Origin: Parcubacteria group bacterium GW2011_GWA2_38_13
GTDB taxonomy: Bacteria > Patescibacteriota > Patescibacteriia > Buchananbacterales > GWA2-38-13
Direction of reading: 5' to 3'
DNA length: 41,723 nucleotides
NCBI GenBank assembly: GCA_000992395.1
Contig: LBUD01000001.1
Span: 1 to 41,723, forward strand
Positions 99-30,837 of this stretch are shown piece after piece. Position numbers and translations under genes: made by a program. The notes below the pieces were generated by a model. It made no database searches, had not been told where the DNA came from, and saw only the letters and a list, made by a program, of their open reading frames with translations. Position 1 is the stretch's first letter. Each line of letters opens with the position of its first letter.

Positions 99-114
99 TA
101 TTAGCATTACATTT

Positions 115-1778: not shown

Positions 1779-1798
1779 TTATTTATTAATATAACCAA

Positions 1799-2940: not shown

Positions 2941-2947
2941 TTATATT

Positions 2948-5454: not shown

Positions 5455-5457
5455 TAT

Positions 5458-6003: not shown

Positions 6004-6050
6004 AATCTTAACTGCTATCATAAAGAAATTTTTAGAAAGTATATTATCAT

Positions 6051-8451: not shown

Positions 8452-9216
8452 ATGAAAAATATTCGCATAATCCCGCGCCTTGATATCAAGGGTCCGAATC
8501 TGATCAAAGGCATCCATACTGAGGGGCTGCGAGTTTTAGGCAACCCAAAAGAATTTGCAAAAAGATATTATGAAGAAGGCGCTGATGAAATCATTTATTT
8601 GGACACGGTTGCCAGCCTGTACCAGCGGAATTTGGATTTTGATCTATTAAAAACAGTGGCGGAACAAATTTCCATTCCATTAACGGTAGGCGGCGGTATC
8701 CGATCAATTCACGATATTAATAACGCTCTGCGAGCCGGAGCCGATAAAGTGGCGATCAATACCTATGCCGTTTCTCATCCTGAATTTCTGGCCGAGGGCG
8801 CGAAAAAATTCGGTTCGCAGTGTATCGTGCTTTATATAGAAGCAAAAAAAATCATGCCTGGCAAATGGGAAGTTTATACGGACGGCGGGCGCGAAAGGAC
8901 GGGCCTAGACGTAATAGAATGGGCGAAAAAAACTATTGATCTTGGCGTTGGCGAAATTTTAATCACTTCGGTTGATTTTGACGGTACGCGCAAAGGTTTT
9001 GACACAGACCTTGTATCCGCAATAACCGGTTTCGCTCCCATTCCGGTGATTGCCCACGGAGGCGCAGGAGATTTTATATCGGTGAAAAATATTATTACAC
9101 AAGGCCATGCCGATGCCGTGGCGATTTCATCGGTACTCCATTACAAAGATTATTCTTTAAAAGATTTAAAAAAATATTTAAACACGGAAAATATTAATGT
9201 AAGGGCTGTATGTTAA
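8452..9216 (+). CDS. hisF: HisF-like cyclase subunit (AglZ/HisF2-type, acetamidino-sugar modification)
   Basis: ATG at 8452 (MKNIRIIPRLDIKG). Motifs GADKVAINT and GEILITSVDFDGTRKGFD of imidazole-glycerol-phosphate synthase HisF. The context is glycan, not histidine, genes. Confidence 0.85.
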   Translation: MKNIRIIPRLDIKGPNLIKGIHTEGLRVLGNPKEFAKRYYEEGADEIIYLDTVASLYQRNLDFDLLKTVAEQISIPLTVGGGIRSIHDINNALRAGADKVAINTYAVSHPEFLAEGAKKFGSQCIVLYIEAKKIMPGKWEVYTDGGRERTGLDVIEWAKKTIDLGVGEILITSVDFDGTRKGFDTDLVSAITGFAPIPVIAHGGAGDFISVKNIITQGHADAVAISSVLHYKDYSLKDLKKYLNTENINVRAVC

Positions 9217-9851
9217 AGCAAAAACATGTTACAATTATCGATTATGGCGTAGGCAATCTCCACAGTATTGTCAAGGCGGTCGGGAATTTTACCGAAAAAG
9301 TTTTTGTCAGTGAAGATCCGCAGGCTATTGAATCGGCTGATGCGATTATTTTGCCCGGAGTAGGATCATTCCAGTCGGGCATGGAAGGGTTGAATGTCCG
9401 GAATCTGGTTCCAAGCGTAAAAAAATATGTTGCCAGCGGAAAGCCAATGCTGGGAATTTGTCTCGGAGCGCAAATCATGCTTGGCAAAGGATTTGAATTC
9501 GGCGAATTTGACGGGCTCAATATTATACACGGCAAGGTAATTAAATTTCCCGTTCTTGAAAATAATGAAAAAATCCCGCATGTCGGCTGGAATTCTATTT
9601 ATCCTAACGCAGATAAAATATGGAACGATTCCATATTAAAAAACCTTGATCCCCTGTCAAGCGTCTATTTTGTCCATTCGTATATTCTGGTTCCGGAAAA
9701 TAACAAAAACATTTTTGCCAAAACAAAATATGGCGGTTATGAATTTTGTTCCGTAATCAGATCCGGCAACATATACGGATGCCAATTCCATCCTGAGAAA
9801 AGCGGAAAAATCGGCCTTGAAATTATTAAAAATTTTCTTGAACTTATTTAA
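9210..9851 (+). CDS. hisH: HisH-like glutamine amidotransferase subunit
   Basis: Class I GATase triad motifs GICLGAQIM, HVGWNS, QFHPEKSG. Overlaps the hisF-like gene by 7 nt. Confidence 0.85.
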   Translation: MLKQKHVTIIDYGVGNLHSIVKAVGNFTEKVFVSEDPQAIESADAIILPGVGSFQSGMEGLNVRNLVPSVKKYVASGKPMLGICLGAQIMLGKGFEFGEFDGLNIIHGKVIKFPVLENNEKIPHVGWNSIYPNADKIWNDSILKNLDPLSSVYFVHSYILVPENNKNIFAKTKYGGYEFCSVIRSGNIYGCQFHPEKSGKIGLEIIKNFLELI

Positions 9852-9855
9852 CCAT

Positions 9856-11067
9856 ATGGATCAAAAATACGGAAAATACGGGCTCCCAACGGAAGTGCAA
9901 TTTTGCAAAAAATGCGTGATTTCCAATCAACGCCCCAATTCTGCCGTGGAAATAAAAAATACCAAGGATACCAAAAAAGAAACAATCAACTTTGACTCCG
10001 AGGGTATCTGCGATGCTTGCCGTTTTGCCGAATATAAAAATAATACGATAGATTGGGAGAAACGGGAAAAAGAGCTTATGGCGCTTTGTGATAAATTTCG
10101 CAGCAAGGATGGTTCTTATGACTGTATTATCCCGGGATCCGGCGGCAAGGATAGCGGTTATGTATCCCATGTCTTAAAATATAAATATGGCATGAACCCC
10201 TTGACGATCACATGGGCTCCGCACCTTTATACAGATATTGGATGGAAAAATATGACAAATTGGATTCATAAAGGAGGATTTGACAATATTTTATTTACTC
10301 CCAATGGCAGAGTCCATCAACTTCTCACGAAAATCGCTTTTGAAAATCTCCTGCATCCTTTCCAGCCTTTTATGATAGGTCAAAGAGGAATAGGCCCTAA
10401 ATTTGCCGCACTGTATAAAATACCACTGGTATTCTATGGGGAAAACCAAGCAGAATACGGCAATAAAATTGAAGAAAATGATAGTCCAACAATGCAACAT
10501 AAATTTTTTGCCGAAGATTCTGGCTTAGATAATTTATATTTAAGTGGCGTCTTCGCGAAGGAAATTATATCTACATACAGCATAACGACTAAAGATCTTA
10601 ATCCTTATTTGCCTATAACCCGATCGGCCATAGAACGCAACGGAATAGAAGTGCATTATATTAGCTATTATTTAAAATGGGATCCACAAGAAAATTTCTA
10701 CTACTCGTCAAAAAATAACAGTTTTCAGGCCAATGACGAAAGAACCGAGGGTAGCTATTCAAAGTATGCCAGTATTGATGATAAAATCGATAACTTCCAT
10801 CATTATACGTATCTCATTAAATTCGGCATGGGACGAGCTACATTTGATGCCTCTCAAGAGATCAGAAACCACAAAATAACTCGCGAAGAAGGGGTGGCGC
10901 TTGTGAAAAGATTTGACCAAGAATTTCCGAAAAAATATTTTAAAGAGTATCTTGAATATATAGATATATCCGAGGAAAAATTTTGGCAACTTATAGATGC
11001 CGCGCGCCCCGGCCATCTATGGAGAAAAAATAATGGGTCGTGGGAATTAATTCATCAAGTAAATTAA
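9856..11067 (+). CDS. N-acetyl sugar amidotransferase (PP-loop ATPase; PseA/WbpG-like)
   Basis: ATG at 9856. N-terminal Zn-ribbon (FCKKCV...CDACRF). PP-loop IIPGSGGKDSGYV. Sits directly after the HisF/HisH pair, as in known acetamidino-sugar loci. Confidence 0.85.
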   Translation: MDQKYGKYGLPTEVQFCKKCVISNQRPNSAVEIKNTKDTKKETINFDSEGICDACRFAEYKNNTIDWEKREKELMALCDKFRSKDGSYDCIIPGSGGKDSGYVSHVLKYKYGMNPLTITWAPHLYTDIGWKNMTNWIHKGGFDNILFTPNGRVHQLLTKIAFENLLHPFQPFMIGQRGIGPKFAALYKIPLVFYGENQAEYGNKIEENDSPTMQHKFFAEDSGLDNLYLSGVFAKEIISTYSITTKDLNPYLPITRSAIERNGIEVHYISYYLKWDPQENFYYSSKNNSFQANDERTEGSYSKYASIDDKIDNFHHYTYLIKFGMGRATFDASQEIRNHKITREEGVALVKRFDQEFPKKYFKEYLEYIDISEEKFWQLIDAARPGHLWRKNNGSWELIHQVN

Positions 11068-11069
11068 AT

Positions 11070-12113
11070 ATGGCAAAACCACATATACAAATTAAAGATA
11101 GAAAAATAGGTTTGGATTATCCGCCACTTGTAATTGCTGAAGTGGGAATAAACCATGAAGGTGATATTCACAAGGCTAAAAAAATGATAATGGATGCGCA
11201 TGCGAGTGGCGCAGAGTGCGTTAAATTCCAAATACACGTTATTGAAGACGAAATGATACCTCTTGCGAAAAAAGTCGTCCCGGGGCACACAAAGGAATCC
11301 ATATGGGAGATAATGGAACGGTGCGCGCTTACAGAGCCAGAAGACAGAGAATTAAAATCGCTTGTGGAAAGCCTTGGTATGATATATCTTTCAACACCGT
11401 TTTCTAGAGCCGCGGCAGACAGGCTTCGCTCAATGGATGTTTTGGCATATAAAATCGGCTCGGGTGAATGTAATAATTATCCGCTCATAGAACATATAGC
11501 ATCATTTAAAAAGCCCGTGATAATGAGCACGGGGATGAATGATGTGCAATCCATAAAAATTGGAGTTGATATTTTAGAAAAAAATAATATACCTTATGCA
11601 ATCCTTCATTGCACCTCATTGTACCCCACCACGTACGACAAGGTTCGGCTTGGAGCACTTCTGGAAATGAAAGAAGCATTTCCGTCTGCAGTTTTAGGGC
11701 TTAGTGACCATTCGCTTGGCAATTATACATGCTTTGGCGCAGTAAGCCTAGGAGCGTCTATTCTTGAAAAACATTTCACGTCCGATAAGTCATGGCCGGG
11801 TCCGGATGTTTCCATTTCCATTGATCCGAAAGAGCTTAGTGAATTGATCGTTGGTTCAAAAGCAATATATTCAGCTCTTGGCGGCAGTAAAAATATTTTA
11901 CCCGAGGAAAAGCCAACGATTGATTTTGCCTATGCCTGTGTTGTTACGATAAAAAATATACGCAAAGGAGAAAAATTCACACGCGACAATATCTGGGTGA
12001 AAAGGCCAGGAACGGGCGAAATCAAAGCGGTGGAATTCAATTCTGTTCTAGGAAAAAAGGCTTTAAACGATATTTCTGAAAATTCTCAACTAACATATAA
12101 AGATATGATATAA
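11070..12113 (+). CDS. neuB: NeuB-family nonulosonic acid synthase, copy 1 (with C-terminal SAF domain)
   Basis: VIAEVGINHEGD, STPFS, HCTSLYPT, LGLSDHSLG, EKHFT; C-terminal IKKGEKFT...VKRPGTG. ATG at 11070 (MAKPHIQIKDRKIG). Confidence 0.85.
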   Translation: MAKPHIQIKDRKIGLDYPPLVIAEVGINHEGDIHKAKKMIMDAHASGAECVKFQIHVIEDEMIPLAKKVVPGHTKESIWEIMERCALTEPEDRELKSLVESLGMIYLSTPFSRAAADRLRSMDVLAYKIGSGECNNYPLIEHIASFKKPVIMSTGMNDVQSIKIGVDILEKNNIPYAILHCTSLYPTTYDKVRLGALLEMKEAFPSAVLGLSDHSLGNYTCFGAVSLGASILEKHFTSDKSWPGPDVSISIDPKELSELIVGSKAIYSALGGSKNILPEEKPTIDFAYACVVTIKNIRKGEKFTRDNIWVKRPGTGEIKAVEFNSVLGKKALNDISENSQLTYKDMI

Positions 12114-12117
12114 AAAT

Positions 12118-13272
12118 ATGGCAAAAAAAAGAAAAATTTTATTTATTACCGAGCGCCGGGCGGATTATAGCCGCATTAAACCCATAATGAAAGCTGTCCA
12201 AGAAAGTAAAAAATTACAGCTCCAATTAGTAGCAACGGGTATGCATTTACTAAAATATTTCGGCGAAACGAAAAAAGTAATACGTAAAGACGGTTTTACG
12301 GTAGATGCCACCATACCTATTTTTAATGAAAAGGATGGCAATGATGGTGCGTCTATGGTCAAGGCTATGGGCAGAGCGCTTGTGGGAATGGCCGATGTAT
12401 TAAAAAAACTCAAGCCAGATATAATTTTTGCCGGCTTTGATCTTGGAGCAAATTTTGCTGCCGCAATCGCCGGGATGCATATGAATATCCATGTCTCTCA
12501 CATACAGGGGGGCGAGGTCAGTGGTACTGTTGACGAAGTTATCCGGCACGCCATTACAAAATTTTCACATATACATTTTGCGGCTACGGAAAAAAGCAAA
12601 AAAAGAATTATTCGGCTCGGTGAAGATCCAAAATACGTCTTCAACGTCGGCAGTCCGAGCCTAGACACGATTCTAAAAACTCCGCAAGTATCAAAAAAAA
12701 TTATTTTTAAGAAATATTCTCTTGATCCCAAGAAAAAAACTATAATTCTAATACAGCATCCTGTTACAACCGAAGTTAATGACGTTGAAAAACAAATTTC
12801 TATTACCATTAAAGCTATAAAAAAAGTTATAAAAAAACACAATATGCAAGCGCTTGCGATATATTCAAATAATGATGCCGGAGGAAAAAAAATAGTTAAA
12901 AGATTATGCTCTTCTGGAATAAGAGTACTGCCACATATTATTTTTGAAGATTTTCTAAAAATTTTAAAAAATTCAGACGTATTGGTCGGAAACTCCAGTT
13001 CAGGCATTCATGAAGCTCCCTCATTCGGACTGCCGACAGTAAACATCGGCACAAGGCAGCAGCTTCGCGAGCGCGGAGTAAACGTAATTGATACTGATCA
13101 TGATGTTCAAAATATCATCAAATGCATAGAAAAATCCTTGTTTGATAAAAAATTCATTACAAAAGTTAAAATGGGGAAAAACCCATATTATAACGGGAAC
13201 ACGTCGAAAAAAGTTGTTAAAATCTTGGAAAATCTTAAATTCCCGTCTATACAAAAAGTTATCACCTATTAA
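12118..13272 (+). CDS. neuC: UDP-N-acetylhexosamine 2-epimerase (hydrolysing), copy 1
   Basis: HIQGGEVSGTVDEVIRHAITKFSHIHFA and GNSSSGIHEAPSFGLPTVNIG, characteristic of NeuC/LegG/PseG-like hydrolysing epimerases. Confidence 0.85.
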   Translation: MAKKRKILFITERRADYSRIKPIMKAVQESKKLQLQLVATGMHLLKYFGETKKVIRKDGFTVDATIPIFNEKDGNDGASMVKAMGRALVGMADVLKKLKPDIIFAGFDLGANFAAAIAGMHMNIHVSHIQGGEVSGTVDEVIRHAITKFSHIHFAATEKSKKRIIRLGEDPKYVFNVGSPSLDTILKTPQVSKKIIFKKYSLDPKKKTIILIQHPVTTEVNDVEKQISITIKAIKKVIKKHNMQALAIYSNNDAGGKKIVKRLCSSGIRVLPHIIFEDFLKILKNSDVLVGNSSSGIHEAPSFGLPTVNIGTRQQLRERGVNVIDTDHDVQNIIKCIEKSLFDKKFITKVKMGKNPYYNGNTSKKVVKILENLKFPSIQKVITY

Positions 13273-13274
13273 AT

Positions 13275-14135
13275 ATGAAAACCATACTTATTATCGGGGG
13301 CACTGGTTATATTGGAGAGTATGTTACCAATTTCTTGAAAAAACATAAAGGGTTAGATCTTATCGTTATTCATAAATCCGAGCCGGTACACAATAAAGTG
13401 CGGGGTGTCCATTATTATAAGCTCAACCTTTCAGAAAAGAAGCTGAAGCTTCCTCCTAAGCTTGCTCAATTTGATGCCATAATCATATTAACCAAATCGG
13501 ATAAAAGCATTATGAATAACATTTGCCGGGTCATCCTGCCACAAGCAAAAAAAATAATTTTTGCCTCATCAATACTTGTTTATCCTTCACGTAGAGGAAA
13601 AATAACCGAAAAAGTCTCACCAAAACCAGTGACTGTATACGAAAAAAACAAAATCTTCGAGGAAAATATTCTTGCGCGATACGCCAAAAAAAACAGAATA
13701 CCCCTCATTGTTGCCCGGCTTGCCAATGTGTATGGCGATATAAAAAATAAGGGCGTTGTTTCAAAAATATTTGAAACGATGCAAAAAAATCAAGAATTTA
13801 AAATGAATAGATTCGGCAACAAAAAAAAGGATTACATTTTTATTGAAGATGCGGCAGAATTTTTATGTCGCTTGGTTTTAATAATACCGCGATCAAAAAA
13901 AGAAATATACAACGTTTGTACGGGAAAAGGTTACTCTATGCTGGAACTTATATCTTTGATTGAAAAAATAATAGAAAAAAAATTGGCGTATACTTTCTAC
14001 GACGGCAAGAAGAACAAGCAATTTATCGTCGGAGAAAATAAAAAAATCGTAGAAACGACGGGTTATCATCCCCATGATATCATGTCGGGTCTTAAAAAGA
14101 CATATAATAACTTCGCATCTAAAAATTTTTCTTAA
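13275..14135 (+). CDS. NAD(P)-dependent epimerase/dehydratase-family SDR (candidate 4-ketoreductase)
   Basis: ILIIGGTGYIGEYV glycine-rich loop; YxxxK (VYEKNK). 286 aa. Confidence 0.75.
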   Translation: MKTILIIGGTGYIGEYVTNFLKKHKGLDLIVIHKSEPVHNKVRGVHYYKLNLSEKKLKLPPKLAQFDAIIILTKSDKSIMNNICRVILPQAKKIIFASSILVYPSRRGKITEKVSPKPVTVYEKNKIFEENILARYAKKNRIPLIVARLANVYGDIKNKGVVSKIFETMQKNQEFKMNRFGNKKKDYIFIEDAAEFLCRLVLIIPRSKKEIYNVCTGKGYSMLELISLIEKIIEKKLAYTFYDGKKNKQFIVGENKKIVETTGYHPHDIMSGLKKTYNNFASKNFS

Positions 14136-14148
14136 TTCATTACTTTCT

Positions 14149-15159
14149 ATGGACAATATTTTCAAAGATAAAACAATACTCGTCACCGGAGGCACGGGGA
14201 GCATTGGCTCCGAACTCGTTGCCCAGCTTCTTGCCTATGAACCAAAACAAATACGAATATTTTCTCGTGATGAAAGCAAGCAATATTATCTTTTAGAAAA
14301 GTTGAACCATCCGAAAAATATCCGTCTCTTGATTGGTGACGTTCGGGATAAAGAAAGACTCTCTATAGCCTTTAAAAATGTCAACTATGTTTTTCACGCA
14401 GCCGCCATGAAACACGTCCCGCTCTGCGAGTATAATCCCGTAGAAGCTGTAAAAACAAATATTCTTGGTTCACAGAATGTTATTGATGTAGCTATTGAAA
14501 ACAATGTAGAAAAGGTTATAGCTATATCTACGGATAAGGCTGTAAAACCCTCAAATGTGCTAGGCACAACAAAATTGATGATGGAAAAACTTTTCGTAAA
14601 CGAAAGTTATTATACATCGAATAACCGTACAAAACTATCCTGTGTAAGATTTGGAAACGTTCTTTGGTCAAGAGGATCGGTTTTGCACCTTTGGAAAAAT
14701 CAAGCCGAAAAAGATAGTTCAATAAAACTAACAAATGGGGAAATGACCAGATTTTTTATGTCTCAGGCGCAAGCGGTCGGGCTTATTCTAAAAGCCACCC
14801 AGTATACGCAAGGCGGGGAAATATTTATTCTAAAAATGCCTGCTATTCAATTATCGTATCTGGCAGAAATTTTTATTAAAAAATATTTTCCAGATAAAAA
14901 AATGGAGATAAAAATAATCGGATGCAGAGAAGGAGAGAAAGAACACGAAGAACTGGTGGACTGCAATGATACAAATAAATATATTTATGAGAACGAAGAA
15001 TTATACATCATAGTTCCATCCAATATTGAAGTGTACAACGCTCCATTTGGCGCAGAAGAAAATTTCTATTTTAAGCATGGTTTTAAAAAGATTGATATAA
15101 TTGAAAAATTCTGTTCTCTGGATAATATCAATCACGAACTGATACGAGAAATTATATAA
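14149..15159 (+). CDS. UDP-N-acetylglucosamine 4,6-dehydratase (CapD/PseB/FlaA1-like)
   Basis: ATG at 14149 (MDNIFKDKTILVTGGTGSIGSEL). FHAAAMKHVPLCEYNPVEAVKTNILGSQNVI matches the PseB/FlaA1 signature region. Confidence 0.8.
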   Translation: MDNIFKDKTILVTGGTGSIGSELVAQLLAYEPKQIRIFSRDESKQYYLLEKLNHPKNIRLLIGDVRDKERLSIAFKNVNYVFHAAAMKHVPLCEYNPVEAVKTNILGSQNVIDVAIENNVEKVIAISTDKAVKPSNVLGTTKLMMEKLFVNESYYTSNNRTKLSCVRFGNVLWSRGSVLHLWKNQAEKDSSIKLTNGEMTRFFMSQAQAVGLILKATQYTQGGEIFILKMPAIQLSYLAEIFIKKYFPDKKMEIKIIGCREGEKEHEELVDCNDTNKYIYENEELYIIVPSNIEVYNAPFGAEENFYFKHGFKKIDIIEKFCSLDNINHELIREII

Positions 15160-15169
15160 TAAATATTTT

Positions 15170-16621
15170 ATGGTTTTGAATGAAACGACAAGCAATAAAA
15201 AAGTTAAAGGGCGCGTGCTCTTCATTTATCCCAACTGTGAGGGGTATGGAGGGCTGCCCAATAGCCTCGCCATACTTTCAGGATGTTTGAAAGGCGCTGG
15301 CTTCGAAACTCGCTGTTTTGACACAACGTTTTTGAAATCCCCCCCTCTTTCGCATTTTTACAGGAAAAAGCATGGGGGATTTATGGACGCCGACCATACC
15401 AAAGTCTGGGGCGAATGGACTCCGGAACTCGCCAAGCAAATCCCGTCCATGTTTGAAAAGACCATAGAAGAATTCAAGCCCAATCTCATTGCCATAAATA
15501 TCGCCGATGTAACCTACCATTATGCCCTGGCGCTTCTTAAGGATATCAATAAAAAATACGGCGTACCCGTAATTGCCGGGGGGCCCACACCGACGCTTTC
15601 TCCAGATTTATTTGAAAGCGCCGATTGCATTGACATGCTGTGCATCGGCGAAGGCGAAGAAGCACTTGTTGAATTAGCCGAGGCGATTGTTGAAAAACGC
15701 GACTACGGCAACATTAAAAATCTCTGGGTGAAAAAAGATAGAAATTTTATTAAAAATACACCTCGCCCCCTCAAAAACTTAGACACTATCCCCTTCCAAG
15801 ACTGGTCAATTTTCGACGAGAGGCATTACTATAAGCCGTATTGCGGTAAATTCTGGAGGACGGGATTTTTTGAGACATCGCGAGGATGCCCCTTCAATTG
15901 CACCTACTGCTGCACGGCGAATCTGCGACAAACGTATCACGGGCTTGGCCAATTTTTACGCTTCCGCAACATTGATAAAGCCCTTGATGAGATCTGCGCC
16001 ATTAAAGACCAGTACAAACTTGAATTAATTTTTTTCATTGACGACAATTTCTTGGGCATACCGCCAGAACGCTTCGATTACTTTTGCGAGCAATATAAAA
16101 AACGGGTGAATCTTCCTTATTACATACAAACCCGCGCTGAAACTGTAAGAGAAGACTTTGTCAAGATGCTTCTGAAAACCAATGTTTCCACTATTGCCCT
16201 GGGCATTGAAAACGGCAATGAAGAATATCGCCGTAAATACATGAACCGTTTCATGTCAAACGAAGCCATTGTCAAAGCTTTCAAAATCATCAATAAATAC
16301 AAAATCCGCACCACGGCCAATGTCATAATAGGCATGCCTTACGAGGAAGAAAAACATTTTTATGACACGGTCCGGCTCATACAAAAGGCAAAACCATCGA
16401 GCTATTCCATCAACTATTTCCAGCCATACCGAGGAACAAAGATGCGAGAAGAAGCGGTGCGCCTCGGCTTTATTCCCAAAGAACATATTATCAGTGAATC
16501 TAACACTTGCCTAGACATGCCCCAATTTCCAAAAGATAGAATAATGCATTGCTACGAAAATTTTAAAAAATATGTAGAGAATAAAATTCCTATACCAATA
16601 CAATATGAGAAATATTCTTAA
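15170..16621 (+). CDS. Cobalamin-binding (class B) radical SAM enzyme
   Basis: VIAGGPTPTLSP...CIGEGE B12-domain-like segment; SRGCPFNCTYC cluster motif. 483 aa. Confidence 0.85.
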   Translation: MVLNETTSNKKVKGRVLFIYPNCEGYGGLPNSLAILSGCLKGAGFETRCFDTTFLKSPPLSHFYRKKHGGFMDADHTKVWGEWTPELAKQIPSMFEKTIEEFKPNLIAINIADVTYHYALALLKDINKKYGVPVIAGGPTPTLSPDLFESADCIDMLCIGEGEEALVELAEAIVEKRDYGNIKNLWVKKDRNFIKNTPRPLKNLDTIPFQDWSIFDERHYYKPYCGKFWRTGFFETSRGCPFNCTYCCTANLRQTYHGLGQFLRFRNIDKALDEICAIKDQYKLELIFFIDDNFLGIPPERFDYFCEQYKKRVNLPYYIQTRAETVREDFVKMLLKTNVSTIALGIENGNEEYRRKYMNRFMSNEAIVKAFKIINKYKIRTTANVIIGMPYEEEKHFYDTVRLIQKAKPSSYSINYFQPYRGTKMREEAVRLGFIPKEHIISESNTCLDMPQFPKDRIMHCYENFKKYVENKIPIPIQYEKYS

Positions 16622-17585
16622 AGAATACAAAATTTTCGACATTGACCCCAAAAGGCTACGGAGCAAAAAATTTTATAAAAACATGCTCGAGCTTCATGAA
16701 AAATTAATGGTAAAATTCAAGAGTGCGATAAAACCCAATGAACAATTCGTATGTCTTCTCTGCCAATCAGATCAAAAAAAATTATTTTTAGAGTATCGCG
16801 GTTACTCTCTATTTGAATGCAGCCGATGCGGGCTTGTTTCTCCGAATATTGATTTCCAAAAAGTCAAAGACCAGGATATTTATGAGGATGAGGCGTACTA
16901 TTTAGACACCAGGAGAGAAATACTTGATACTTATGAATACCGAAAGAATACATACGCGCCAGAGCGGCTCAAATATATCCTGGAAAAAACAAAGCTTGAT
17001 GTGAATCAAATTAATCTGCTTGATGTCGGTTGCGGTCCCGGATATTTTATTGAACATCTCAAAAGCATGGGCATCAAATACAAAGGACTCGAGCTTACCG
17101 ATTATTTGGTTACAATCTGCAATGAAAGAAGCCTCAGTGTTGCTAAAACCGAGCTGAAAGATGAGCCTGATGGCGCGTATAACGTTATTACGATGTATGA
17201 TGTCCTGGAGCATGTTTCAAACCCGCTAACCCTATTCCGCGACCTTCATAAAAAACTGGCAGACACGGGTTTCGTAGTAGCATACTCGCCCCACATACAC
17301 TCAATTGCTTTTTATCTATTGAAAGAAAAACAGAATACTCTTTACCCATTTCAACATATTGCCTTTTACGACGCTAAGTCGTTGCAATATGTAGCTGAAA
17401 AAACCGGCTTTAAGGTACATTCAATTAATTTTTTCGGTCTTGATGTCATAGATTATTTTTGCTACAGAATGTACGCAGATAATTGCGATTACCTGGAAAA
17501 ATTCAAAGAATTCATGCCCGTGATGCAGGCGATAATTGATAAGATGAATTTGAGCAATCATATAAGAGTAATTTTTAAAAAATAA
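16605..17585 (+). CDS. Class I SAM-dependent methyltransferase with N-terminal Zn-ribbon
   Basis: CLLCQS...CSRCGL zinc-ribbon-like pairs. SAM motif I LLDVGCGPGYF. ITMYDVLEHVSNP. Confidence 0.8.
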   Translation: MRNILKEYKIFDIDPKRLRSKKFYKNMLELHEKLMVKFKSAIKPNEQFVCLLCQSDQKKLFLEYRGYSLFECSRCGLVSPNIDFQKVKDQDIYEDEAYYLDTRREILDTYEYRKNTYAPERLKYILEKTKLDVNQINLLDVGCGPGYFIEHLKSMGIKYKGLELTDYLVTICNERSLSVAKTELKDEPDGAYNVITMYDVLEHVSNPLTLFRDLHKKLADTGFVVAYSPHIHSIAFYLLKEKQNTLYPFQHIAFYDAKSLQYVAEKTGFKVHSINFFGLDVIDYFCYRMYADNCDYLEKFKEFMPVMQAIIDKMNLSNHIRVIFKK

Positions 17586-17588
17586 ATT

Positions 17589-18299
17589 ATGTTTAACGAT
17601 AAAAAAATTCTAGCAATTATTCCAGCCAGAGGTGGCTCAAAGCGACTGCCAAGAAAAAATATCAGGCCTTTGGCCGGAAAGCCGTTATTGGCATATTCAA
17701 TTGAAGCCGCAAGGTCATCGCAATATATTGATCGTATCATAGTGTCAACAGAAGACATGGAAATTGCAAATATTGCAAAAAAATTTGGGGCTGACGTACC
17801 GGCTTTACGGCCCATGGAACTTGCCGAGGACGCCACAAAATCAGATGATGTCTTGAAATATACTGCTGAATATATGGAGTCAAAAGAAAATTATATACCT
17901 GATATCATCGTTTTAATCCAGCCCACAAGTCCACTTGTATCCGCTGAAGATATTGACAAAACTGTTGAAACGCTTATCGCAGGAAATTCTCATTCATCAT
18001 TGACTGTGTGTGAAATTACTGAAAGACCGGAATGGATGTATCGGCTTAATGGCAATGTTGCTTCTCCCTACATCCAGGGCGAAGTTCCCTATAGGCACCA
18101 AGACATGCAAAAACTGTATCGAACCAATGGCGCTGTTTATTGCGTCAAGCGTGAAATATTATTAAAAAAAGGAATACTCGTAGACAAAGAAAGTTTGCGG
18201 GTATATATAATGCCCAAAGAGAGATCTGTGGACATCGACGACATTAATGATTTCAACTATGCAGAAACGCTTATCGAAAACAATAAAAATACACAATAA
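17589..18299 (+). CDS. neuA: CMP-nonulosonic acid synthetase (acylneuraminate cytidylyltransferase family)
   Basis: N-terminal AIIPARGGSKRLPRKNI signature; QPTSPL; 236 aa. Confidence 0.85.
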   Translation: MFNDKKILAIIPARGGSKRLPRKNIRPLAGKPLLAYSIEAARSSQYIDRIIVSTEDMEIANIAKKFGADVPALRPMELAEDATKSDDVLKYTAEYMESKENYIPDIIVLIQPTSPLVSAEDIDKTVETLIAGNSHSSLTVCEITERPEWMYRLNGNVASPYIQGEVPYRHQDMQKLYRTNGAVYCVKREILLKKGILVDKESLRVYIMPKERSVDIDDINDFNYAETLIENNKNTQ

Positions 18300-19326
18300 G
18301 ACTATCGGATACAAACACCCCGTCTTTATTATCGCTGAAGCTGGCGTTAACCATAACGGCCGGCTTGATCTCGCCCTTAATCTTGTAGATGCTGTTTCTG
18401 AAAGTGGCGCCGATGCTATTAAATTTCAAACATGGAAAGCGGAGCAATTAACGACAAAATCAGCAAAAATGGCGGCGTACCAAAAAAAGAATATGGGTGT
18501 TGAAAAGTCCCAATTTGACATGCTGAAAGGATTGGAACTCCGAGAGGATTTTTTCGAACCTATAATGAAGCGATGCCGTGAAAAAAATCTTATTTTTCTC
18601 TCCACTCCTCATGGCGGATTTGAAGCTGTGGATTTTTTAGAAAAATTAGATATTCCGGCTTATAAATTCGGCTCTGGCGACCTTACCAATATTCCGGTTT
18701 TGGAACACGCGGCGCGCTACCAAAGGCCCATGATAATTGGAACGGGAATGGCTAACATGGATGAGGTAAAAAATGCGATTGATTGTATTAAAAATCAAGG
18801 AAACAATGATATCATAGCTCTTCATTGTACGACAAATTATCCCTGCCCCCCAAACGAGATAAATCTCATGGCGCTAATAACGATGAAAAAAAAATTAGAT
18901 GTTTTGGTGGGATATTCCGACCATACACTTGGAATCCAGACCCCCATAATGTCTGCCACGCTTGGCGCCTGTGTTATAGAAAAACACATAACCCTGGATA
19001 GGGACATGCCGGGACCCGATCACTTGGCATCTACCGAGCCCGATGAATTCAAAAAAATGGTCGACGCATTAAGGCTTGTAAAAACCATTCTCGGCTCAAA
19101 CCAAAAAAAACCCAATCAAAGTGAAATCGCTATCATGGAAATAGCAAAAAAAAGCATTGTATCAACAAAAAATATAAAAAAGGGAGAGGTTTTTACAAAA
19201 AATAATATAGGCATTAAGCGTCCGGGAAACGGCATTGAGCCTAGGTTTTATTTTGATATACTCGGAAAAATATCGAAGACAGATGTGGCGGAAGATTCGT
19301 TAATTCAAAAAGAGCATTATGAATAA
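18259..19326 (+). CDS. neuB: NeuB-family nonulosonic acid synthase, copy 2 (with SAF domain)
   Basis: IIAEAGVNHNG, STPHG, HCTTNYPCP, GYSDHTLG, EKHIT, IKKGEVFT...IKRPGNG. Carries a ...MAAYQKKNMGVEKSQFDML... segment absent from copy 1. The start is 18259 or 18247; both overlap the neuA 3' end. Confidence 0.85.
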   Translation: MQKRLSKTIKIHNKTIGYKHPVFIIAEAGVNHNGRLDLALNLVDAVSESGADAIKFQTWKAEQLTTKSAKMAAYQKKNMGVEKSQFDMLKGLELREDFFEPIMKRCREKNLIFLSTPHGGFEAVDFLEKLDIPAYKFGSGDLTNIPVLEHAARYQRPMIIGTGMANMDEVKNAIDCIKNQGNNDIIALHCTTNYPCPPNEINLMALITMKKKLDVLVGYSDHTLGIQTPIMSATLGACVIEKHITLDRDMPGPDHLASTEPDEFKKMVDALRLVKTILGSNQKKPNQSEIAIMEIAKKSIVSTKNIKKGEVFTKNNIGIKRPGNGIEPRFYFDILGKISKTDVAEDSLIQKEHYE

Positions 19327-20461
19327 AAAGAAAAAAATATTAATTATTACCGGAAGCCGCGCGGAATACGGTTTGCTGAAACCTATCATAAAGGGACTCA
19401 TGAAAAACAAAAAAATAGAACCACATCTTTTGGTTACAGGAATGCATACCTTGAAAAAATTCGGCTTTTCGGTCAATGAAATAATACAAGATAAAATGCC
19501 AATAAAAGCTGTGGTAAAAATTTTAGAAAAAAACGATATGCTCATTTCTTTAACAAAGGAAATACTTGGCATACGAAAATGTTGCTCTTCATTAAAACCC
19601 GATCTCATTCTGGTTCTAGGAGACCGCGATGAGGCCTTTGCCGGTGCTATTGTGGGAGGTCATATGAGAATACCGGTTGCCCATATCCACGGGGGCGACG
19701 TGACTGGATTTGTCGTTGATGAATACATACGCCACTCAATAACAAAATTTTCCCACCTTCACTTTGCAGCCAGCAAAAAAAGCTTTGATCGTATCATAAG
19801 GCTCGGCGAGGAAAGGTGGAGGGTCTTTGTCTGCGGGGCTCCGGGGATAGATAGCATACGCCAAGGAAACTTTGCATCGAAAAATTCTATAGCAAAAAAA
19901 TTTGGATTTGATAAAAATAAAAAATGGCTTTTAATCATTCATCATCCCGCGCCTCTTGACCAAATAATATTTTTACGGCAGATAAGGCCGCTTCTTGAAT
20001 GCGTAAAAAACATAGATGCTGAAAAAATTATCATTTATCCAAATTCAGACACCGGCAGTAACATTTTTATAAAAGAAATACATACATGCAAAAAAAATAA
20101 TAATTTTCACATTTATAAAAATCTTCCAAAAAATGATTTTTTAAATATCATGAACAGCGCTGATGCGCTTTTAGGAAATTCAAGCGCCGGTATAATTGAA
20201 TCGGGATATTTTAATCTGCCGACCGTAAATATAGGAAATAGACAAAAAAACCGAGAAAGGGGGAGAAATGTTATAGATTCTGATTATAAAAAAAATACTA
20301 TAAAAAAAGCCATAGCAAGGGCACTTTCTCCCCAATTCAAAAAAAACTGCAAAAACATGAAAAGTCCGTATGGAAACGGCCACGCAAGCGAAAAAATCAT
20401 AAAAATTTTAGAAAAACACATTGATAATAAAAAATTATTCCTTAAAAAATTAACTTTTTAA
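19319..20461 (+). CDS. neuC: UDP-N-acetylhexosamine 2-epimerase (hydrolysing), copy 2
   Basis: HIHGGDVTGFVVDEYIRHSITKFSHLHFA and GNSSAGIIESGYFNLPTVNIG. Confidence 0.85.
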   Translation: MNKKKKILIITGSRAEYGLLKPIIKGLMKNKKIEPHLLVTGMHTLKKFGFSVNEIIQDKMPIKAVVKILEKNDMLISLTKEILGIRKCCSSLKPDLILVLGDRDEAFAGAIVGGHMRIPVAHIHGGDVTGFVVDEYIRHSITKFSHLHFAASKKSFDRIIRLGEERWRVFVCGAPGIDSIRQGNFASKNSIAKKFGFDKNKKWLLIIHHPAPLDQIIFLRQIRPLLECVKNIDAEKIIIYPNSDTGSNIFIKEIHTCKKNNNFHIYKNLPKNDFLNIMNSADALLGNSSAGIIESGYFNLPTVNIGNRQKNRERGRNVIDSDYKKNTIKKAIARALSPQFKKNCKNMKSPYGNGHASEKIIKILEKHIDNKKLFLKKLTF

Positions 20462-20468
20462 CTTACGT

Positions 20469-22223
20469 ATGAAAATACTCGGCATATGCCCTGAGGCCTG
20501 GATTTCGTCAGCGGCACTGATAGAAAATGGCAGAATAATCGCTGCGGCTCCCGAAGAAAGATTTAATAGGGAAAAAATGTCAAGGAAATTCCCTTTTTTG
20601 GCCATACAATATTGCCTCAAGGAAGCACAATGCGGTCTTGAAGATATAGATTACATAGCCGTTGGCTGGAACCCGGGAATACATATTCAGCTTTATAATT
20701 TTAGGTTTTCCGATGCAGCCCGCTGGCGTGCGGAATATTTATATTCAGTGCCAAATCACTTCATGAAACTTTTAAAAGATAAAAAAGTTAATTACGTGGA
20801 ACAATCTTTAATGCAAAAAAACCATGATTGTAAAATAATTTATGTGACACACCACCATGCCCACGCCGCCAATGCTTTTTTCCTGTCCCCGTTTAAAGAA
20901 GCGGCTATTTTAACAGCGGACGGAAGAGGAGAAGACGATACATGTCTGTATGCAACAGGAAAAGACAACAAAATTATGGATTTACAAACCATGGCCATCC
21001 CCCATTCTATCGGCCTCGTGTATTCAAGCGTTACGCAGTTTTTAGGATTCCGTCCGCATATTGATGAATGGAAAGTAATGGCGCTAGCATCGTATTACCC
21101 GAATGAAAATAAATATTACAAAATATTCAAACAAATAGTGATGCCAGCGCGCGACGGAAAAATTGAAATTGACTTACGATTTTTCAATTACTATCTCCAG
21201 GACAGAAGTGAATATTATACTCCTTCATTTGAAAATACTTTTGGAAAACCAAGGCTATCCCATGAAGAAATCACAGAAAAACACAAACAAATCGCCGCCG
21301 GGCTTCAGAGAATAAGCGAGGAAGCGCTTGCCTATATGCTTAATTGGCTTTACAAAAAAACAAAAATGGAAAATGTCGCTGTCAGCGGAGGCAGCTTCAT
21401 GAACTCCGTATTCAATGGAAAAATAAAAAAATTAACGCCTTTCAAAAATGTTTTCATATCCTCTTGCCCCGATGACAGCGGCGTGCCGATGGGAGCTGCA
21501 TTATATGTCTACAATCATATTCTTTCCAATACTTTGCGGAAGGAACAAACTCACAATTACTACGGGCCTGAATTCTCAAATACCGATATTGCCATAGCGC
21601 TAGACAAGGCAAAAATAAAAAAAGTTTTTACTCCGAACATAGCAAAATATGCGGCGAATCTCATCAGTAAAGGCAAGATAGTCGGCTGGTTTCAGGGGAA
21701 AATGGAATTCGGGCAAAGGGCGCTCGGAAACCGATCCATCTTAGCCGATCCGCGACTCAAAAATATGAAAGACAAATTAAATATTGCGATTAAGTATCGA
21801 GAATCGTTTCGGCCGTTTGCCCCATCCATACTTGAAGAAAAAAAAATGGAATACTTTGAGTGCGATGGAAACGATTCATCTCCTTTCATGGAAAAAGTCT
21901 TCCAGATAAAAAAAGAAAAGCAAAAAAAAATACCGGCAGTTACCCACGTTGATGGATCCGGTAGAATCCAAACGGTTGATAAAAAAACAAATCCCCTGTA
22001 TTATCAATTAATATCAGAATTTGAAAAAATAACCGGCGTTCCAATTGTCCTCAACACTTCTTTTAATTTAAACGGCGAACCGATAGTCTGCACACCCAAT
22101 GACGCCATAAGGACTTTTTTTTCCTGCGGCATGGATGCCCTTGTTATGGGAAACTATGTGCTTACCAAAAATATTATAAAAAATAAAAAATCGTTATTCA
22201 CTAAAACAATGGAAAAAAAATGA
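20469..22223 (+). CDS. Carbamoyltransferase (NodU/CmcH/TobZ family)
   Basis: N-terminal ILGI...SSAALIENGRIIAAAPEERFNREK, metal-site HHHAHAANAF, C-terminal YrdC/Kae1-like half. 584 aa. Confidence 0.85.
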   Translation: MKILGICPEAWISSAALIENGRIIAAAPEERFNREKMSRKFPFLAIQYCLKEAQCGLEDIDYIAVGWNPGIHIQLYNFRFSDAARWRAEYLYSVPNHFMKLLKDKKVNYVEQSLMQKNHDCKIIYVTHHHAHAANAFFLSPFKEAAILTADGRGEDDTCLYATGKDNKIMDLQTMAIPHSIGLVYSSVTQFLGFRPHIDEWKVMALASYYPNENKYYKIFKQIVMPARDGKIEIDLRFFNYYLQDRSEYYTPSFENTFGKPRLSHEEITEKHKQIAAGLQRISEEALAYMLNWLYKKTKMENVAVSGGSFMNSVFNGKIKKLTPFKNVFISSCPDDSGVPMGAALYVYNHILSNTLRKEQTHNYYGPEFSNTDIAIALDKAKIKKVFTPNIAKYAANLISKGKIVGWFQGKMEFGQRALGNRSILADPRLKNMKDKLNIAIKYRESFRPFAPSILEEKKMEYFECDGNDSSPFMEKVFQIKKEKQKKIPAVTHVDGSGRIQTVDKKTNPLYYQLISEFEKITGVPIVLNTSFNLNGEPIVCTPNDAIRTFFSCGMDALVMGNYVLTKNIIKNKKSLFTKTMEKK

Positions 22224-23194
22224 AAAATATCCTAATAATCGGAGCTGGACAAATCGGCTCACGACATCTTCAAGCGTTGAAAGCAGTGCGCACGAGCATT
22301 CAAATATTTGTCGTCGACCCCTCGCCTGAATCTCTAAAAACAGCTAAAAAAATGTATGAATTAACACGAATGGGCGAGAGTGAACATATGGTTCGCTTTT
22401 CAAATAAACTTCCTCATAATCCAGAGCAAATTGACGTGGCTATTATCGCCACGAACTCTGATGTGCGAAGAGAAGCCTGTGAAACTCTGCTGGAAAGAAC
22501 CGATGTTCGCCATCTTATATTTGAAAAAATACTATTTAATCATAAAAAAGATTATGATGAGATTGGTCTATCTCTCAGAAAACATAAAACAAAAGCTTAT
22601 GTCAATTTTAACATGAGAATGCATCCCATGTACTCCTCGATTAAAGATGAGCTTGGCGATGATAAAATTTTTTATCATGTTTCTGGTGGAAATTTTGGCC
22701 TTGTGACCAATGCCATCCATTACCTTGACCATCTCGCGCTTCTTGCTCATTGCCGAGATTTTACCATTAACACAAATCTCCTCGACCACAACCCGATACC
22801 CAGCAAGAGAAAAGGATTTTTAGAATTTACAGGAACAATTGAAGCAAAACTGAAAAACGGCAGTCAGATGCTCGTTACCTCTTATGAAACCGGCGGGGCT
22901 CCTTGCCAAATAATAATCTTTAATAAAAATATGCGCATCATATCAAGAGAAAATGAGGGAAAATTTTGGATAGCAAAAAAAGAAAATTCATGGTCCTGGC
23001 AGGAAATATTGAGCCCTTGGCCATATCAAAGTGAAATGACCACGCACCTGGTTGAAAGACTGCTTCATAAAGGAGAATGCTCATTGCCAACATATCAAGA
23101 GTCAATAAAAATCCACCTGCAAATGCTTGAACCGCTGTTAGAACATCTGAACCGATTTTCAAAAAAAAAGTATAATTACTATCCCTTTACATAA
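22220..23194 (+). CDS. Gfo/Idh/MocA-family NAD(P)-dependent oxidoreductase
   Basis: N-terminal Rossmann ILIIGAGQIGSRHLQAL; EKILF motif. ATGA overlap with the carbamoyltransferase gene. Confidence 0.7.
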   Translation: MKNILIIGAGQIGSRHLQALKAVRTSIQIFVVDPSPESLKTAKKMYELTRMGESEHMVRFSNKLPHNPEQIDVAIIATNSDVRREACETLLERTDVRHLIFEKILFNHKKDYDEIGLSLRKHKTKAYVNFNMRMHPMYSSIKDELGDDKIFYHVSGGNFGLVTNAIHYLDHLALLAHCRDFTINTNLLDHNPIPSKRKGFLEFTGTIEAKLKNGSQMLVTSYETGGAPCQIIIFNKNMRIISRENEGKFWIAKKENSWSWQEILSPWPYQSEMTTHLVERLLHKGECSLPTYQESIKIHLQMLEPLLEHLNRFSKKKYNYYPFT

Positions 23195-23270
23195 TAATTA
23201 ATACTTGTAATTCTTAATTTCTGCTGATTCAAAATCCTATTATTCAAAATTTAGAATTAAAAAAATTGAT

Positions 23271-30805: not shown

Positions 30806-30837
30806 AAAAGCTCCACCAAAATCGTGGAGCTTTTTTT
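30806..30837. terminator. Bidirectional intrinsic (Rho-independent) terminator between the convergent blocks
   Basis: AAAAGCTCCAC-CAAAATC-GTGGAGCTTTTTTT. The 8-bp stem is 30809-30816 / 30824-30831, flanked by an A-tract upstream and a T7 tract downstream. It lies between the stops at 30782 (+) and 30836 (-). Confidence 0.7.

Follow-up and report, generated by a model that had tools for sequence, protein, structure and literature searches.

Two nonulosonic acid gene modules in a Parcubacteria glycan island and a candidate aminotransferase-free route to a 9-deoxy sugar

Nonulosonic acid genes of the island

The stretch of DNA considered here (the window, 41,723 nt of contig LBUD01000001.1 from Parcubacteria group bacterium GW2011_GWA2_38_13) is occupied by a densely packed glycan-biosynthesis island with a GC content of about 37% over the whole window, in which two gene sets for nonulosonic acids (NulOs), referred to as module A (8452-15159) and module B (16605 to about 25110), would rely on one common CMP-NulO synthetase. 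NulOs are key surface determinants, involved in immune mimicry, phage reception and the glycosylation of flagellins and S-layers, and their genome-based prediction currently sorts neuraminic (Neu), legionaminic (Leg) and pseudaminic (Pse) acids by gene content. In module A, a synthase and a 2-epimerase are encoded together with a PseB-like 4,6-dehydratase and a short-chain dehydrogenase/reductase (SDR), and no aminotransferase is encoded in the 60.3 kb represented by the window and its flanks.

The 42 main open reading frames (ORFs) of the window were scanned with Pfam and NCBIfam profiles, which recovered all genes named in an initial annotation of the bare sequence at the same positions (Table 1). 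The synthase of module A, NeuB1, is 53.7% identical to the crystallized N-acetylneuraminic acid (Neu5Ac) synthase of Neisseria meningitidis (NmNeuB, PDB 1XUU, 405 bits), but shares only 33.7% identity with NeuB2 of module B; the two copies are indeed as distantly related as initially annotated, yet NeuB1 itself is by no means exotic. With the N-acetylneuraminate synthase model TIGR03569 (cut-off 399.65 bits), NeuB1 stays below the cut-off (362 bits) and NeuB2 exceeds it (428 bits). Neither reaches the 340 bits required by the PseI model TIGR03586 (233 and 302 bits, respectively), and the Phe which marks Pse synthases at the position of NmNeuB Gly133 (PMC7371886) is absent from both: the respective motifs read GSGE in NeuB1 and GSGD in NeuB2, compared with ASFE in CjPseI. 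Each synthase gene is followed by one for a hydrolysing 2-epimerase, in line with the annotation. NeuC1 and NeuC2 (41.2% identical to each other) score 397 and 407 bits with TIGR03568 (cut-off 235.9) versus 104 and 116 bits with the wecB model, which places both among the hydrolysing NeuC/LegG enzymes, and they match the LegG structure 5XVS with 228 and 227 bits. The annotated single cytidylyltransferase was also confirmed, as the window has no CTP_transf_3 gene other than that of NeuA; the protein scores 188 bits with the PseF model, below the cut-off of 205.7.

The dehydratase of module A finds its PDB matches in Pen (251 bits), WbjB (234), FlaA1 (232), CapE (230) and PglF (180), and falls short of the cut-offs of both the PseB model TIGR03589 (318 versus 407.75 bits) and the FnlA/CapE model TIGR04130 (251 versus 730 bits). 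It contains the TDK element, and its motif STDKAVKPSNVLGTTK shows a Leu at the position of FlaA1 Tyr141, where CapE, WbjB and PglF have Met. The idea that this residue is set by the partnership with the neighboring SDR was ruled out, as Met or Leu is present in all homologues whatever their context. The SDR itself, a protein of 286 amino acids (SDR286), conserves GxxGxxG, Ser98 and Y122-x3-K126, and its AlphaFold2 model (predicted local distance difference test score 92.8) adopts an extended-SDR fold. All its Foldseek matches are nucleotide-sugar SDRs acting at C4, namely 4-epimerases, 4,6-dehydratases and the RMD reductase. None of the NCBIfam equivalogs is matched (galE comes closest with 76 bits), and at the end of strand beta2, which bears on the preference for NAD or NADP, Asp and basic residues are mixed among the family members. 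Upstream of NeuB1 lies the acetamidino triad of HisF-like, HisH-like and PP-loop proteins, which held up as annotated: the WbuX and HisH-like proteins score above their cut-offs, and the HisF-like protein is just under the cut-offs of both the WbuZ model TIGR03572 (258 bits, cut-off 300) and the hisF model (282 bits). The triad can therefore be regarded as a WbuX/WbuY/WbuZ system, with a HisF-like subunit only near the cut-off.

As had been annotated, DegT, hexapeptide and GNAT domains are missing from all 42 ORFs of the window in the Pfam scans. The flanks were taken from a 94-kb metagenome scaffold found by exact-protein look-up, which shows 0 mismatches in the 11.8 kb compared and extends the window by 8,984 bp on its upstream and 9,612 bp on its downstream side. 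A six-frame, stop-to-stop profile scan of the resulting 60.3 kb detected no small hexapeptide protein and a single DegT-family ORF, which lies outside the window at window coordinates -3167 to -1971, behind a gene for a GMD-like 4,6-dehydratase. Among solved structures, its product matches ColD (2GMS) best, with 169 bits, followed by the CDP-hexulose 3-dehydrase E1 with 124 bits, as opposed to 96 bits for PseC. Its segment FFFGHQLSTIEGG aligns with FYSHHIATMEGG of ColD and shows a His at ColD His188, which is the position of the Schiff-base Lys of aminotransferases and the residue exchanged in two mutant entries (H188N, H188K); the orthologue in a close relative (L094) has the identical motif. 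Being ColD-like with a His of the ColD/E1 type in place of the catalytic Lys, the protein is a pyridoxamine phosphate-dependent 3-dehydratase of a GDP-deoxy-sugar pathway and not an aminotransferase, and its gene, situated within a GDP-sugar module, was ruled out as restoring the canonical pathway. The only GNAT domain in the 60.3 kb forms the C-terminus (residues 610-683) of a 721-aa protein encoded 4-6 kb past the window among GT4 glycosyltransferase genes, and this C-terminal position and the surroundings led us to set it aside as a PseH candidate. The suggestion of the initial annotation that the missing genes might lie just outside the window did not hold within the 9-10 kb of either flank. 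In place of the flanking DegT aminotransferase and acetyltransferase, which it had named as the finding that would speak against its proposal, there is a DegT-family gene 2 kb upstream that is ColD-like and codes for His instead of Lys.

Recurrence of the cassette, the NeuB1 signature and the gene environment

The recurrence of module A was followed in 80 genome loci around NeuB1-type genes (such a gene being recognized in 72 of them), which were labeled with a panel of window proteins and with profiles of DegT and SDR286 obtained by iteration; for the baseline, 80 metagenome loci were collected with NeuB2 homologues as the starting point, including 27 classic Leg-like loci with adequate flanks. 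In 17 of the 72 loci, the encoded NeuC shares 40% identity or more with NeuC1 (12 of these at 59-69%), and 47 other loci carry a NeuC below this value. A PseB-like gene is present within 7 kb in 16/17 of the NeuC1-type loci versus 2/47 of the others (Fisher p=5e-12), the usual order of this type-A cassette being NeuB1-NeuC1-(SDR286)-PseB-like-NeuA. SDR286 is found in 10 of the 17 cassettes, and a DegT gene occurs within 10 kb in only 4 of them (13 have none), whereas 25 of the 27 classic Leg-like loci possess one (p=4e-6). A second cassette (type B) with the order NeuB2-NeuC-CarbT-SDR286-PseB-like, where CarbT denotes a carbamoyltransferase, is again free of DegT and contains NeuB2 homologues of 54-59% identity (L097, L099, L101-L104); sampling from the SDR286 side retrieved the same DegT-free cassettes. 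SDR286 is encoded in 7/10 type-B cassettes and in 0/27 classic DegT-containing loci, and overall SDR286 and DegT exclude each other almost completely. The notion of a clean evolutionary swap between the two is weakened by L098, whose DegT is an SDR286::DegT fusion. A further locus, L174 (scaffold_236), comes from the same metagenome sample as the 94-kb scaffold but from a different organism; it shows the order rSAM-HisF-HisH-WbuX-MTase-NeuA-NeuB-NeuC-SDR286-MTase (rSAM, radical S-adenosylmethionine enzyme; MTase, methyltransferase) with no DegT within 8 kb, so that the cassette is shared among co-occurring community members.

Close relatives of the window organism, which its nearest homologues and the synteny with a Saccharibacteria MAG assign to the Patescibacteria, differ in the possession of module A. 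Three contigs encode a NeuB2 94% identical to that of the window (L094, L095, L096), and the gene order of L095 is that of the window minus the radical SAM gene (15170..16621), both being otherwise collinear. L094 and L096 keep the series MT326-NeuA-NeuB2-NeuC2-CarbT-GFO-GFO-MptE-GT4-deacetylase-ADI-like-MTase at 74-94% identity, but here a GT2 gene abuts MT326, and the triad, NeuB1, NeuC1, SDR286, the PseB-like gene and the radical SAM gene are jointly missing (window 8452-16621). Module A is therefore delimited by a strain- or species-level presence/absence polymorphism. The joint absence argues that the dehydratase and the SDR belong with NeuB1, NeuC1 and the triad, and it shows that NeuA, NeuB2 and NeuC2 can stand without a UDP-N-acetylglucosamine (UDP-GlcNAc) dehydratase. 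This supports the split into a 6-deoxy and a Neu5Ac-like route sharing one NeuA, as the initial annotation had proposed; of this proposal, the division itself stood, and the Neu5Ac-like nature of the NeuB2/NeuC2 product may be assumed only tentatively.

The most telling feature of NeuB1 concerns the substrate pocket. The C6 hydroxyl of N-acetylmannosamine (ManNAc) is bound by an Asn of the beta2-alpha2 loop, which is Asn72 in PNH5 and Asn74 in NmNeuB and is fully conserved in Neu5Ac synthases (NeuS), but absent from other NulO synthases (PMC11339185), and the specificity at C4-C6 is governed by positions 70-85 of NmNeuB (PMC7371886). In NeuB1, the position of Asn74 is taken by His73 (codon 11286-11288, motif PGHTK), so the Asn strictly expected of a NeuS is lacking. 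Only N74H and A75T differ between the substrate contacts of the two enzymes, with Q55, S132, G133, E134, Y186, D247, F288 and R314 of NmNeuB retained; E25, K53 and K129 are likewise identical in the alignment. When 73 NeuB1-type proteins were aligned with NmNeuB, position 74 was the column which best discriminated between cassette-linked and plain loci, with Ala75Thr as the next local change: His is present in 16/18 of the cassette-linked NeuB1s (window included) and Asn in 53/55 of those from plain NeuABC loci (p=4e-12), while the eight retained contacts listed above are invariant throughout. In the two plain loci with His74 (L059 and L084), other dehydratase-type SDRs flank NeuB. A neighbor-joining tree, although poorly resolved, shows His74 at three or more places, one of them being L059/L084. 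A pocket which is intact for a manno-configured 2-acetamido sugar and has lost only the ligand of the 6-OH would fit 6-deoxy-ManNAc, but not the bulkier 4-acetamido precursor of Leg. His74 is present in 48/120 of the closest database clusters. Homologues of NeuB1 with 64-74% identity are known from Patescibacteria, Chloroflexi, Firmicutes, Proteobacteria, Acidobacteria and archaea, and NeuB1-type genes of the same identity range (L014-L093) also occur in Myxococcota, Planctomycetes, Bifidobacterium, Euryarchaeota and Nitrosotenuis. Their tree has the shape of a star, which suggests very strong constraint combined with extensive horizontal transfer.

The acetamidino triad is distributed differently. 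WbuX homologues of at least 50% identity are encoded within 10 kb of a NeuB1-type gene in 12/72 genome loci, namely in 4/17 cassettes and 8/47 plain NeuABC loci (19/72 with a WbuX-like match at any identity). With 13/17 cassettes lacking WbuX and 8/47 dehydratase-free loci containing it, the triad appears to follow the NulO genes rather than the dehydratase. In the latter eight loci (L019, L037, L052, L055, L058, L079, L089, L090), the WbuX homologue lies no more than 4 kb from an Asn74-type NeuB1, mostly together with HisH and/or HisF and in a plain NeuA-NeuB-NeuC setting without a dehydratase, which hints at a natural occurrence of 5-acetamidino-neuraminic acid (Neu5Am). A 400-aa protein without Pfam match, encoded upstream of NeuB1 in L010, was ruled out as a WbuX, since it gave no BLAST match.

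In module B, the solved structure most similar to NeuB2 is SpsE of B. subtilis (234 bits), followed by PseI of C. jejuni (207) and NmNeuB (201). The segment AAYQKKNMGVEKSQFDML, which the initial annotation had noticed as an extra of this copy, represents a beta2-alpha2 loop 4 residues longer than that of NmNeuB, with no Asn aligned at position 74. The nearest foreign relatives of NeuB2 occur in SDR-type and DegT-type clusters alike. The methyltransferase MT326 has orthologues of 83-87% identity in L094-L096 and one of 50% in L010, and CarbT has orthologues (61-62% identical) inside the NeuB2-NeuC-CarbT-SDR286-PseB-like cassettes and is likely to catalyze the O-carbamoylation of a NulO. The GFO pair is found downstream of NeuA in the same order in L014, L019, L022, L094 and L176, followed by a conserved MptE/Maf-like gene in L019, L022 and L094.

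Table 1. Genes of modules A and B with the profile matches on which their assignment is based (all coordinates refer to the window)
Feature	Coordinates (strand)	Profile match or other evidence
HisF/WbuZ-like cyclase subunit of acetamidino triad	8452..9216 (+)	PF00977 (His_biosynth) 211 bits; gene call on identical scaffold
HisH-like glutaminase subunit	9210..9851 (+)	TIGR01855 206 bits, cut-off 105
WbuX-family N-acetyl sugar amidotransferase (PP-loop)	9856..11067 (+)	TIGR03573 383 bits, cut-off 203
NeuB1, NmNeuB-like nonulosonate synthase	11070..12113 (+)	PF03102 233 bits + SAF 35.5 bits
NeuC1, hydrolysing 2-epimerase	12118..13272 (+)	TIGR03568 397 bits
SDR286, 286-aa extended SDR	13275..14135 (+)	
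PseB-like UDP-GlcNAc 4,6-dehydratase	14149..15159 (+)	PF02719 (Polysacc_synt_2) 334 bits
B12-binding radical SAM enzyme, putative accessory	15170..16621 (+)	PF04055 + PF02310
SAM methyltransferase (MT326), adjoins NeuA	16605..17585 (+)	Methyltransf_23 77 bits
NeuA-type CMP-nonulosonate synthetase	17589..18299 (+)	PF02348 (CTP_transf_3) 111 bits
NeuB2, NeuB/LegI-group synthase	18259..19326 (+)	PF03102 294 bits + SAF 33.7 bits
NeuC2, hydrolysing 2-epimerase	19319..20461 (+)	TIGR03568 407 bits
Carbamoyltransferase (CarbT), NodU/CmcH type	20469..22223 (+)	PF02543 + PF16861
Two GFO/IDH/MocA oxidoreductases	22220..24209 (+)	PF01408
MptE/Maf-like protein, candidate NulO transferase	24220..25110 (+)	PF01973 33.2 bits, just under 34.6 cut-off

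Many genes of the window abut or overlap by a few bases, consistent with one long co-translated operon. The 20 bases before the start codons are A/T-rich and contain no recognizable Shine-Dalgarno motif (e.g., at 11070, 12118, 13275 and 17589). A polysaccharide deacetylase (323 aa) and a 377-aa protein with a faint match to the arginine-deiminase/amidinotransferase fold (19.8 bits) are encoded at 27890-29975; both are 81-90% identical in L094 and may serve in the de-N-acetylation or another modification of sugars. A convergent block on the minus strand (30836-41660) is devoted to glycan assembly and codes for three GT4 and one GT2 glycosyltransferases, a PMT_2-type membrane glycosyltransferase, an amine-oxidase-like flavoprotein, an SDR and several methyltransferases, as well as for two proteins of 285 and 577 aa that match no Pfam family. 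On the other side, the upstream flank and the start of the window (L001:1-8984 and window 70-7388) together contain a GDP-heptose/hexose module with a GHMP kinase, an HddC-like guanylyltransferase, GmhA- and GmhB-like proteins, the GMD-like dehydratase and the ColD-like gene, accompanied by two GDP-fucose-synthase-like SDRs, the alpha and beta subunits of a thiamine diphosphate-dependent E1, a cupin, a DJ-1 protein and B12-radical SAM enzymes. This gene content suggests the synthesis of a 3,6-dideoxy heptose or hexose that is possibly branched or C-methylated. In all, four B12-binding radical SAM enzymes are encoded in the island (window 2948-4897, 6051-7388 and 15170-16621; L001:34-1359), of which the copy in the flank shows its best NCBIfam similarity to PhpK-type methyltransferases; these enzymes may be involved in the C-methylation of sugars.

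Proposed pathway and competing explanations

With moderate confidence, somewhat better than even, we propose that module A encodes an aminotransferase-free route in which a reductase takes the place of the aminotransferase and the acetyltransferase and which leads to a 9-deoxy mono-amino NulO; the evidence for it is in silico throughout. The PseB-like enzyme would convert UDP-GlcNAc to a UDP-4-keto-6-deoxy-N-acetylhexosamine (UDP-4-keto-6-deoxy-HexNAc), and SDR286, as the proposed 4-reductase of this intermediate, would use NAD(P)H to reduce C4 and generate UDP-6-deoxy-HexNAc, most simply UDP-N-acetylquinovosamine (UDP-QuiNAc), a step which would replace the transamination and N-acetylation known from the Leg and Pse pathways. 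NeuC1 would then remove UDP and epimerize C2 to yield 6-deoxy-ManNAc, and NeuB1 would condense the latter with phosphoenolpyruvate to 5-acetamido-3,5,9-trideoxy-nonulosonic acid (293.111 Da). NeuA would activate this product with CMP, and WbuX/HisH/HisF would turn the 5-N-acetyl into an acetamidino group (292.127 Da), the likely product being a 5-acetamidino-3,5,9-trideoxy nonulosonic acid. The D-glycero-D-galacto (9-deoxy-Neu) series would be favored by the conserved NmNeuB pocket and by the fact that an epimerase of the NeuC type is encoded instead of a hydrolase like PseG, and the amidination may take place on the completed NulO. The enzymes of module B (methyltransferase, NeuA, NeuB2, NeuC2, CarbT, the two GFO proteins and the Maf-like protein) would provide a second NulO, most simply a Neu5Ac-like one from UDP-GlcNAc, which would then be decorated. 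The sequence of dehydratase, SDR, NeuC1 and NeuB1 leading to a 9-deoxy mono-amino NulO had already been put forward in the initial annotation and gains independent support from the recurrence of the cassette, from His74 and from the polymorphism of the module.

Several observations weigh against this proposal. TDK and the Leu or Met that replaces the Tyr in all homologues do not type the dehydratase as retaining or inverting at C5, and neither the fold nor the sequence of SDR286 separates a 4-reductase from a 4-epimerase. In addition, 7/17 type-A cassettes contain no SDR286 homologue, and 5 of these 7 still have His74, so SDR286 is not the universal reductase. The 647-aa product of an ORF at L098:13233-15176 consists of an SDR286 domain fused to a Lys-containing DegT (FYPNKQMTTGEGG) and is encoded next to a hexapeptide acetyltransferase, a carbamoyltransferase and a PseB-like gene, an arrangement that is hard to square with a model of either reductase or aminotransferase; L014 and L016 hold SDR286 plus DegT and hexapeptide genes. 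The cassette loci L017 and L066 retain Asn74, and His is not obviously a hydrophobic substitute for Asn. In other lineages, the proteins most closely related to NeuC2 are encoded in clusters that include DegT, so that module B might be a Leg-type pathway without its early genes here. Finally, with about 9-10 kb covered per flank, a Lys-type aminotransferase and an acetyltransferase could be encoded elsewhere in the genome.

In an ordinary Leg-type 5,7-diamino pathway, ending in Leg5Am7Ac as in Legionella, the aminotransferase and acetyltransferase genes would be located elsewhere, and His74 would reflect no more than the absence of the 6-OH from the Leg precursor. The coverage of the genome is limited to about 60 kb, a DegT gene is nearby in 4 of the 17 cassette loci, a hexapeptide-DegT-PseB-like group stands beside the NeuB2 homologue in L014 and L016, NeuC2 has its nearest homologues outside the species in DegT-linked positions, and His74 speaks for a lost contact to the 6-OH, but not for a 4-OH. 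We nevertheless regard such a pathway as unlikely: the DegT gene is located inside the cluster in nearly all classic loci, as opposed to less than a quarter of the cassettes, and the dehydratase keeps to the cassette, whereas its supposed partners do not. Moreover, NeuB1 retains the complete ManNAc pocket except for positions 74 and 75, whereas Leg and Pse synthases, acting on 4-NHAc substrates, differ throughout this region, and SDR286 would be left without a role. It is quite unlikely that the genes follow the logic of E. coli O145, in which Neu5Ac is combined with L-FucNAm. Here, NeuC1, NeuB1 and NeuA would make plain Neu5Ac, and the PseB-like enzyme and the SDR would produce a separate UDP-6-deoxy-HexNAc of the QuiNAc, N-acetylfucosamine (FucNAc) or N-acetyl-6-deoxyaltrosamine (6dAltNAc) type, to be amidinated by WbuXYZ and incorporated as a glycan residue of its own. 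The names of TIGR03572 and TIGR03573, derived from WbuZ and WbuX of O145, would agree with this, as would the similarity of the dehydratase to FnlA (251 bits), CapE and WbjB (about 230 bits) and, as far as secondary accounts go, the presence of QuiNAc and 6dAltNAc in the O-unit of F. nucleatum 25586. However, the change in the C6-OH ligand of NeuB1 coincides exactly with the presence of the dehydratase, with which the NeuC subtype varies as well, and the genes for dehydratase and SDR are located between NeuC1 and NeuA. WbuX is missing in most cassettes and present in dehydratase-free loci, as described above, and a non-hydrolysing epimerase of the FnlC type is absent, both epimerases scoring as NeuC.

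A very improbable alternative would assign SDR286 as a C4-epimerase or a Pal-like partner of the dehydratase, leaving the 4-keto group to another enzyme, such as the GFO oxidoreductases or a reductase or aminotransferase encoded at an unlinked site. By sequence, SDR286 finds its second-best match in Pal (6BWL, 46 bits) and the dehydratase its best in Pen (6BWC), the top Foldseek matches of SDR286 are 4-epimerases, the fusion in L098 suggests consecutive steps, and seven cassettes do without SDR286. On the other hand, SDR286 is no more similar to Pal than to GalE, the dehydratase retains the catalytic TDK motif which Pen lacks, and it needs no such partner, as judged from L092, L109, L117 and L122, which pair a PseB-like gene with DegT in the absence of SDR286. 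The near-complete mutual exclusion of SDR286 and DegT also argues against this alternative.

If the aminotransferase-free route applies, a conserved amination-free cassette would represent a fourth biosynthetic logic beside those of Neu, Leg and Pse, and it would explain the origin of the 3,5,9-trideoxy mono-amino NulO so far seen once, in F. nucleatum. At a more tentative level, and with somewhat less than even confidence, one may envisage a widespread, undescribed class of bacterial and archaeal 9-deoxy-neuraminic ("7-hydroxy-legionaminic") acids, often 5-N-amidinated, which would be synthesized via a five-gene cassette (dehydratase, 4-reductase, NeuC, His74-NeuB, NeuA) common in Patescibacteria, with Asn74His as genomic predictor; the same logic would provide a first biosynthetic model for the trideoxy NulO of F. 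nucleatum. The combination of His74 (NmNeuB numbering) with a PseB-like neighbor would be a simple marker, and the frequency of His74 in the closest database clusters indicates that the sugar could be common on the ultra-small bacteria of the candidate phyla radiation, whose envelope chemistry is almost unknown. The enzymes might also be employed in the chemo-enzymatic synthesis of 9-deoxy sialic acids.

Comparison with known systems

With the Neu5Ac pathway of N. meningitidis (SiaA/SiaC/SiaB; 1XUU/1XUZ), the window shares a synthase composed of TIM-barrel and SAF domains, a hydrolysing 2-epimerase encoded next to it and a CMP-synthetase, but it differs in the 4,6-dehydratase and SDR included in the operon, the triad directly upstream and the exchanges N74H and A75T in NeuB1. 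The Leg pathway (PglF/LegB, LegC, LegH, LegG, LegI, LegF) has in common the 4,6-dehydration, the treatment of the 4-keto group, the NeuC-type 2-epimerase, the NeuB-type synthase and the CMP activation, as well as the 5-N-acetimidoylation by a WbuX-type enzyme, as in Leg5Am7Ac. It differs in that an SDR is found here in place of the aminotransferase and N-acetyltransferase, so that C7 would bear an OH instead of an NHAc group. UDP-D-QuiNAc is known to be made by a UDP-GlcNAc 4,6-dehydratase and a 4-reductase (e.g., WbpM/WbpV, WreV/WreQ, Pdeg/Preq), and the first two steps proposed for module A follow the same two-enzyme logic, except that the product would be hydrolysed by NeuC1 and not transferred. 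The E. coli O145 cluster (wbuXYZ + fnlABC + nnaABC) likewise unites an acetamidino triad, a dehydratase of the PseB/FnlA family, an SDR and sialic acid genes, while the window lacks a FnlC-type epimerase, encodes a dehydratase far below the FnlA cut-off (251 versus 730 bits) and two synthase/epimerase pairs, and shows the altered C6-OH ligand. Pen and Pal of the Pse pathway of B. thuringiensis (6BWC, 6BWL) are a similarly adjacent pair, related to the dehydratase (251 bits) and SDR286 (46 bits), respectively. However, Pen has the Tyr but no TDK, whereas the dehydratase of the window has TDK but no Tyr, and the Bacillus pathway goes on with an aminotransferase and an acetyltransferase, neither of which is encoded in the window.

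The predicted composition itself has a precedent in F. nucleatum 25586, although a prior biosynthetic route for this rare type of sugar was not found in the literature searched. According to the secondary accounts in PMC13014188 and PMC7371886, the O-antigen of this strain contains a gluco-configured 5-acetimidoylamino-3,5,9-trideoxy-non-2-ulosonic acid, tentatively assigned as L-glycero-L-gluco. Apart from this one, no natural trideoxy mono-amino NulO was found in the literature, the SugarBase preprint reports none, and no literature joining nonulosonic acids and Patescibacteria was retrieved. Among the papers mentioning fusaminic acid, no title announces a study on biosynthesis, and those searched cite no more than the structure. 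A 2026 preprint describes ulosonic acids of Magnetospirillum that are CMP-activated and have extended carbon backbones. Going by the accounts of the Fusobacterium sugar, its constitution is identical to that predicted here (C11H20N2O7, 9-deoxy, with one amidinated nitrogen at C5), but its tentative L-glycero-L-gluco configuration and its occurrence alongside L-6dAltNAc would imply an inverting dehydratase and no 2-epimerization, whereas the window points to the D-glycero-D-galacto series. Seen against these systems, the module represents a variant within NulO biosynthesis and not a separate kind of system.

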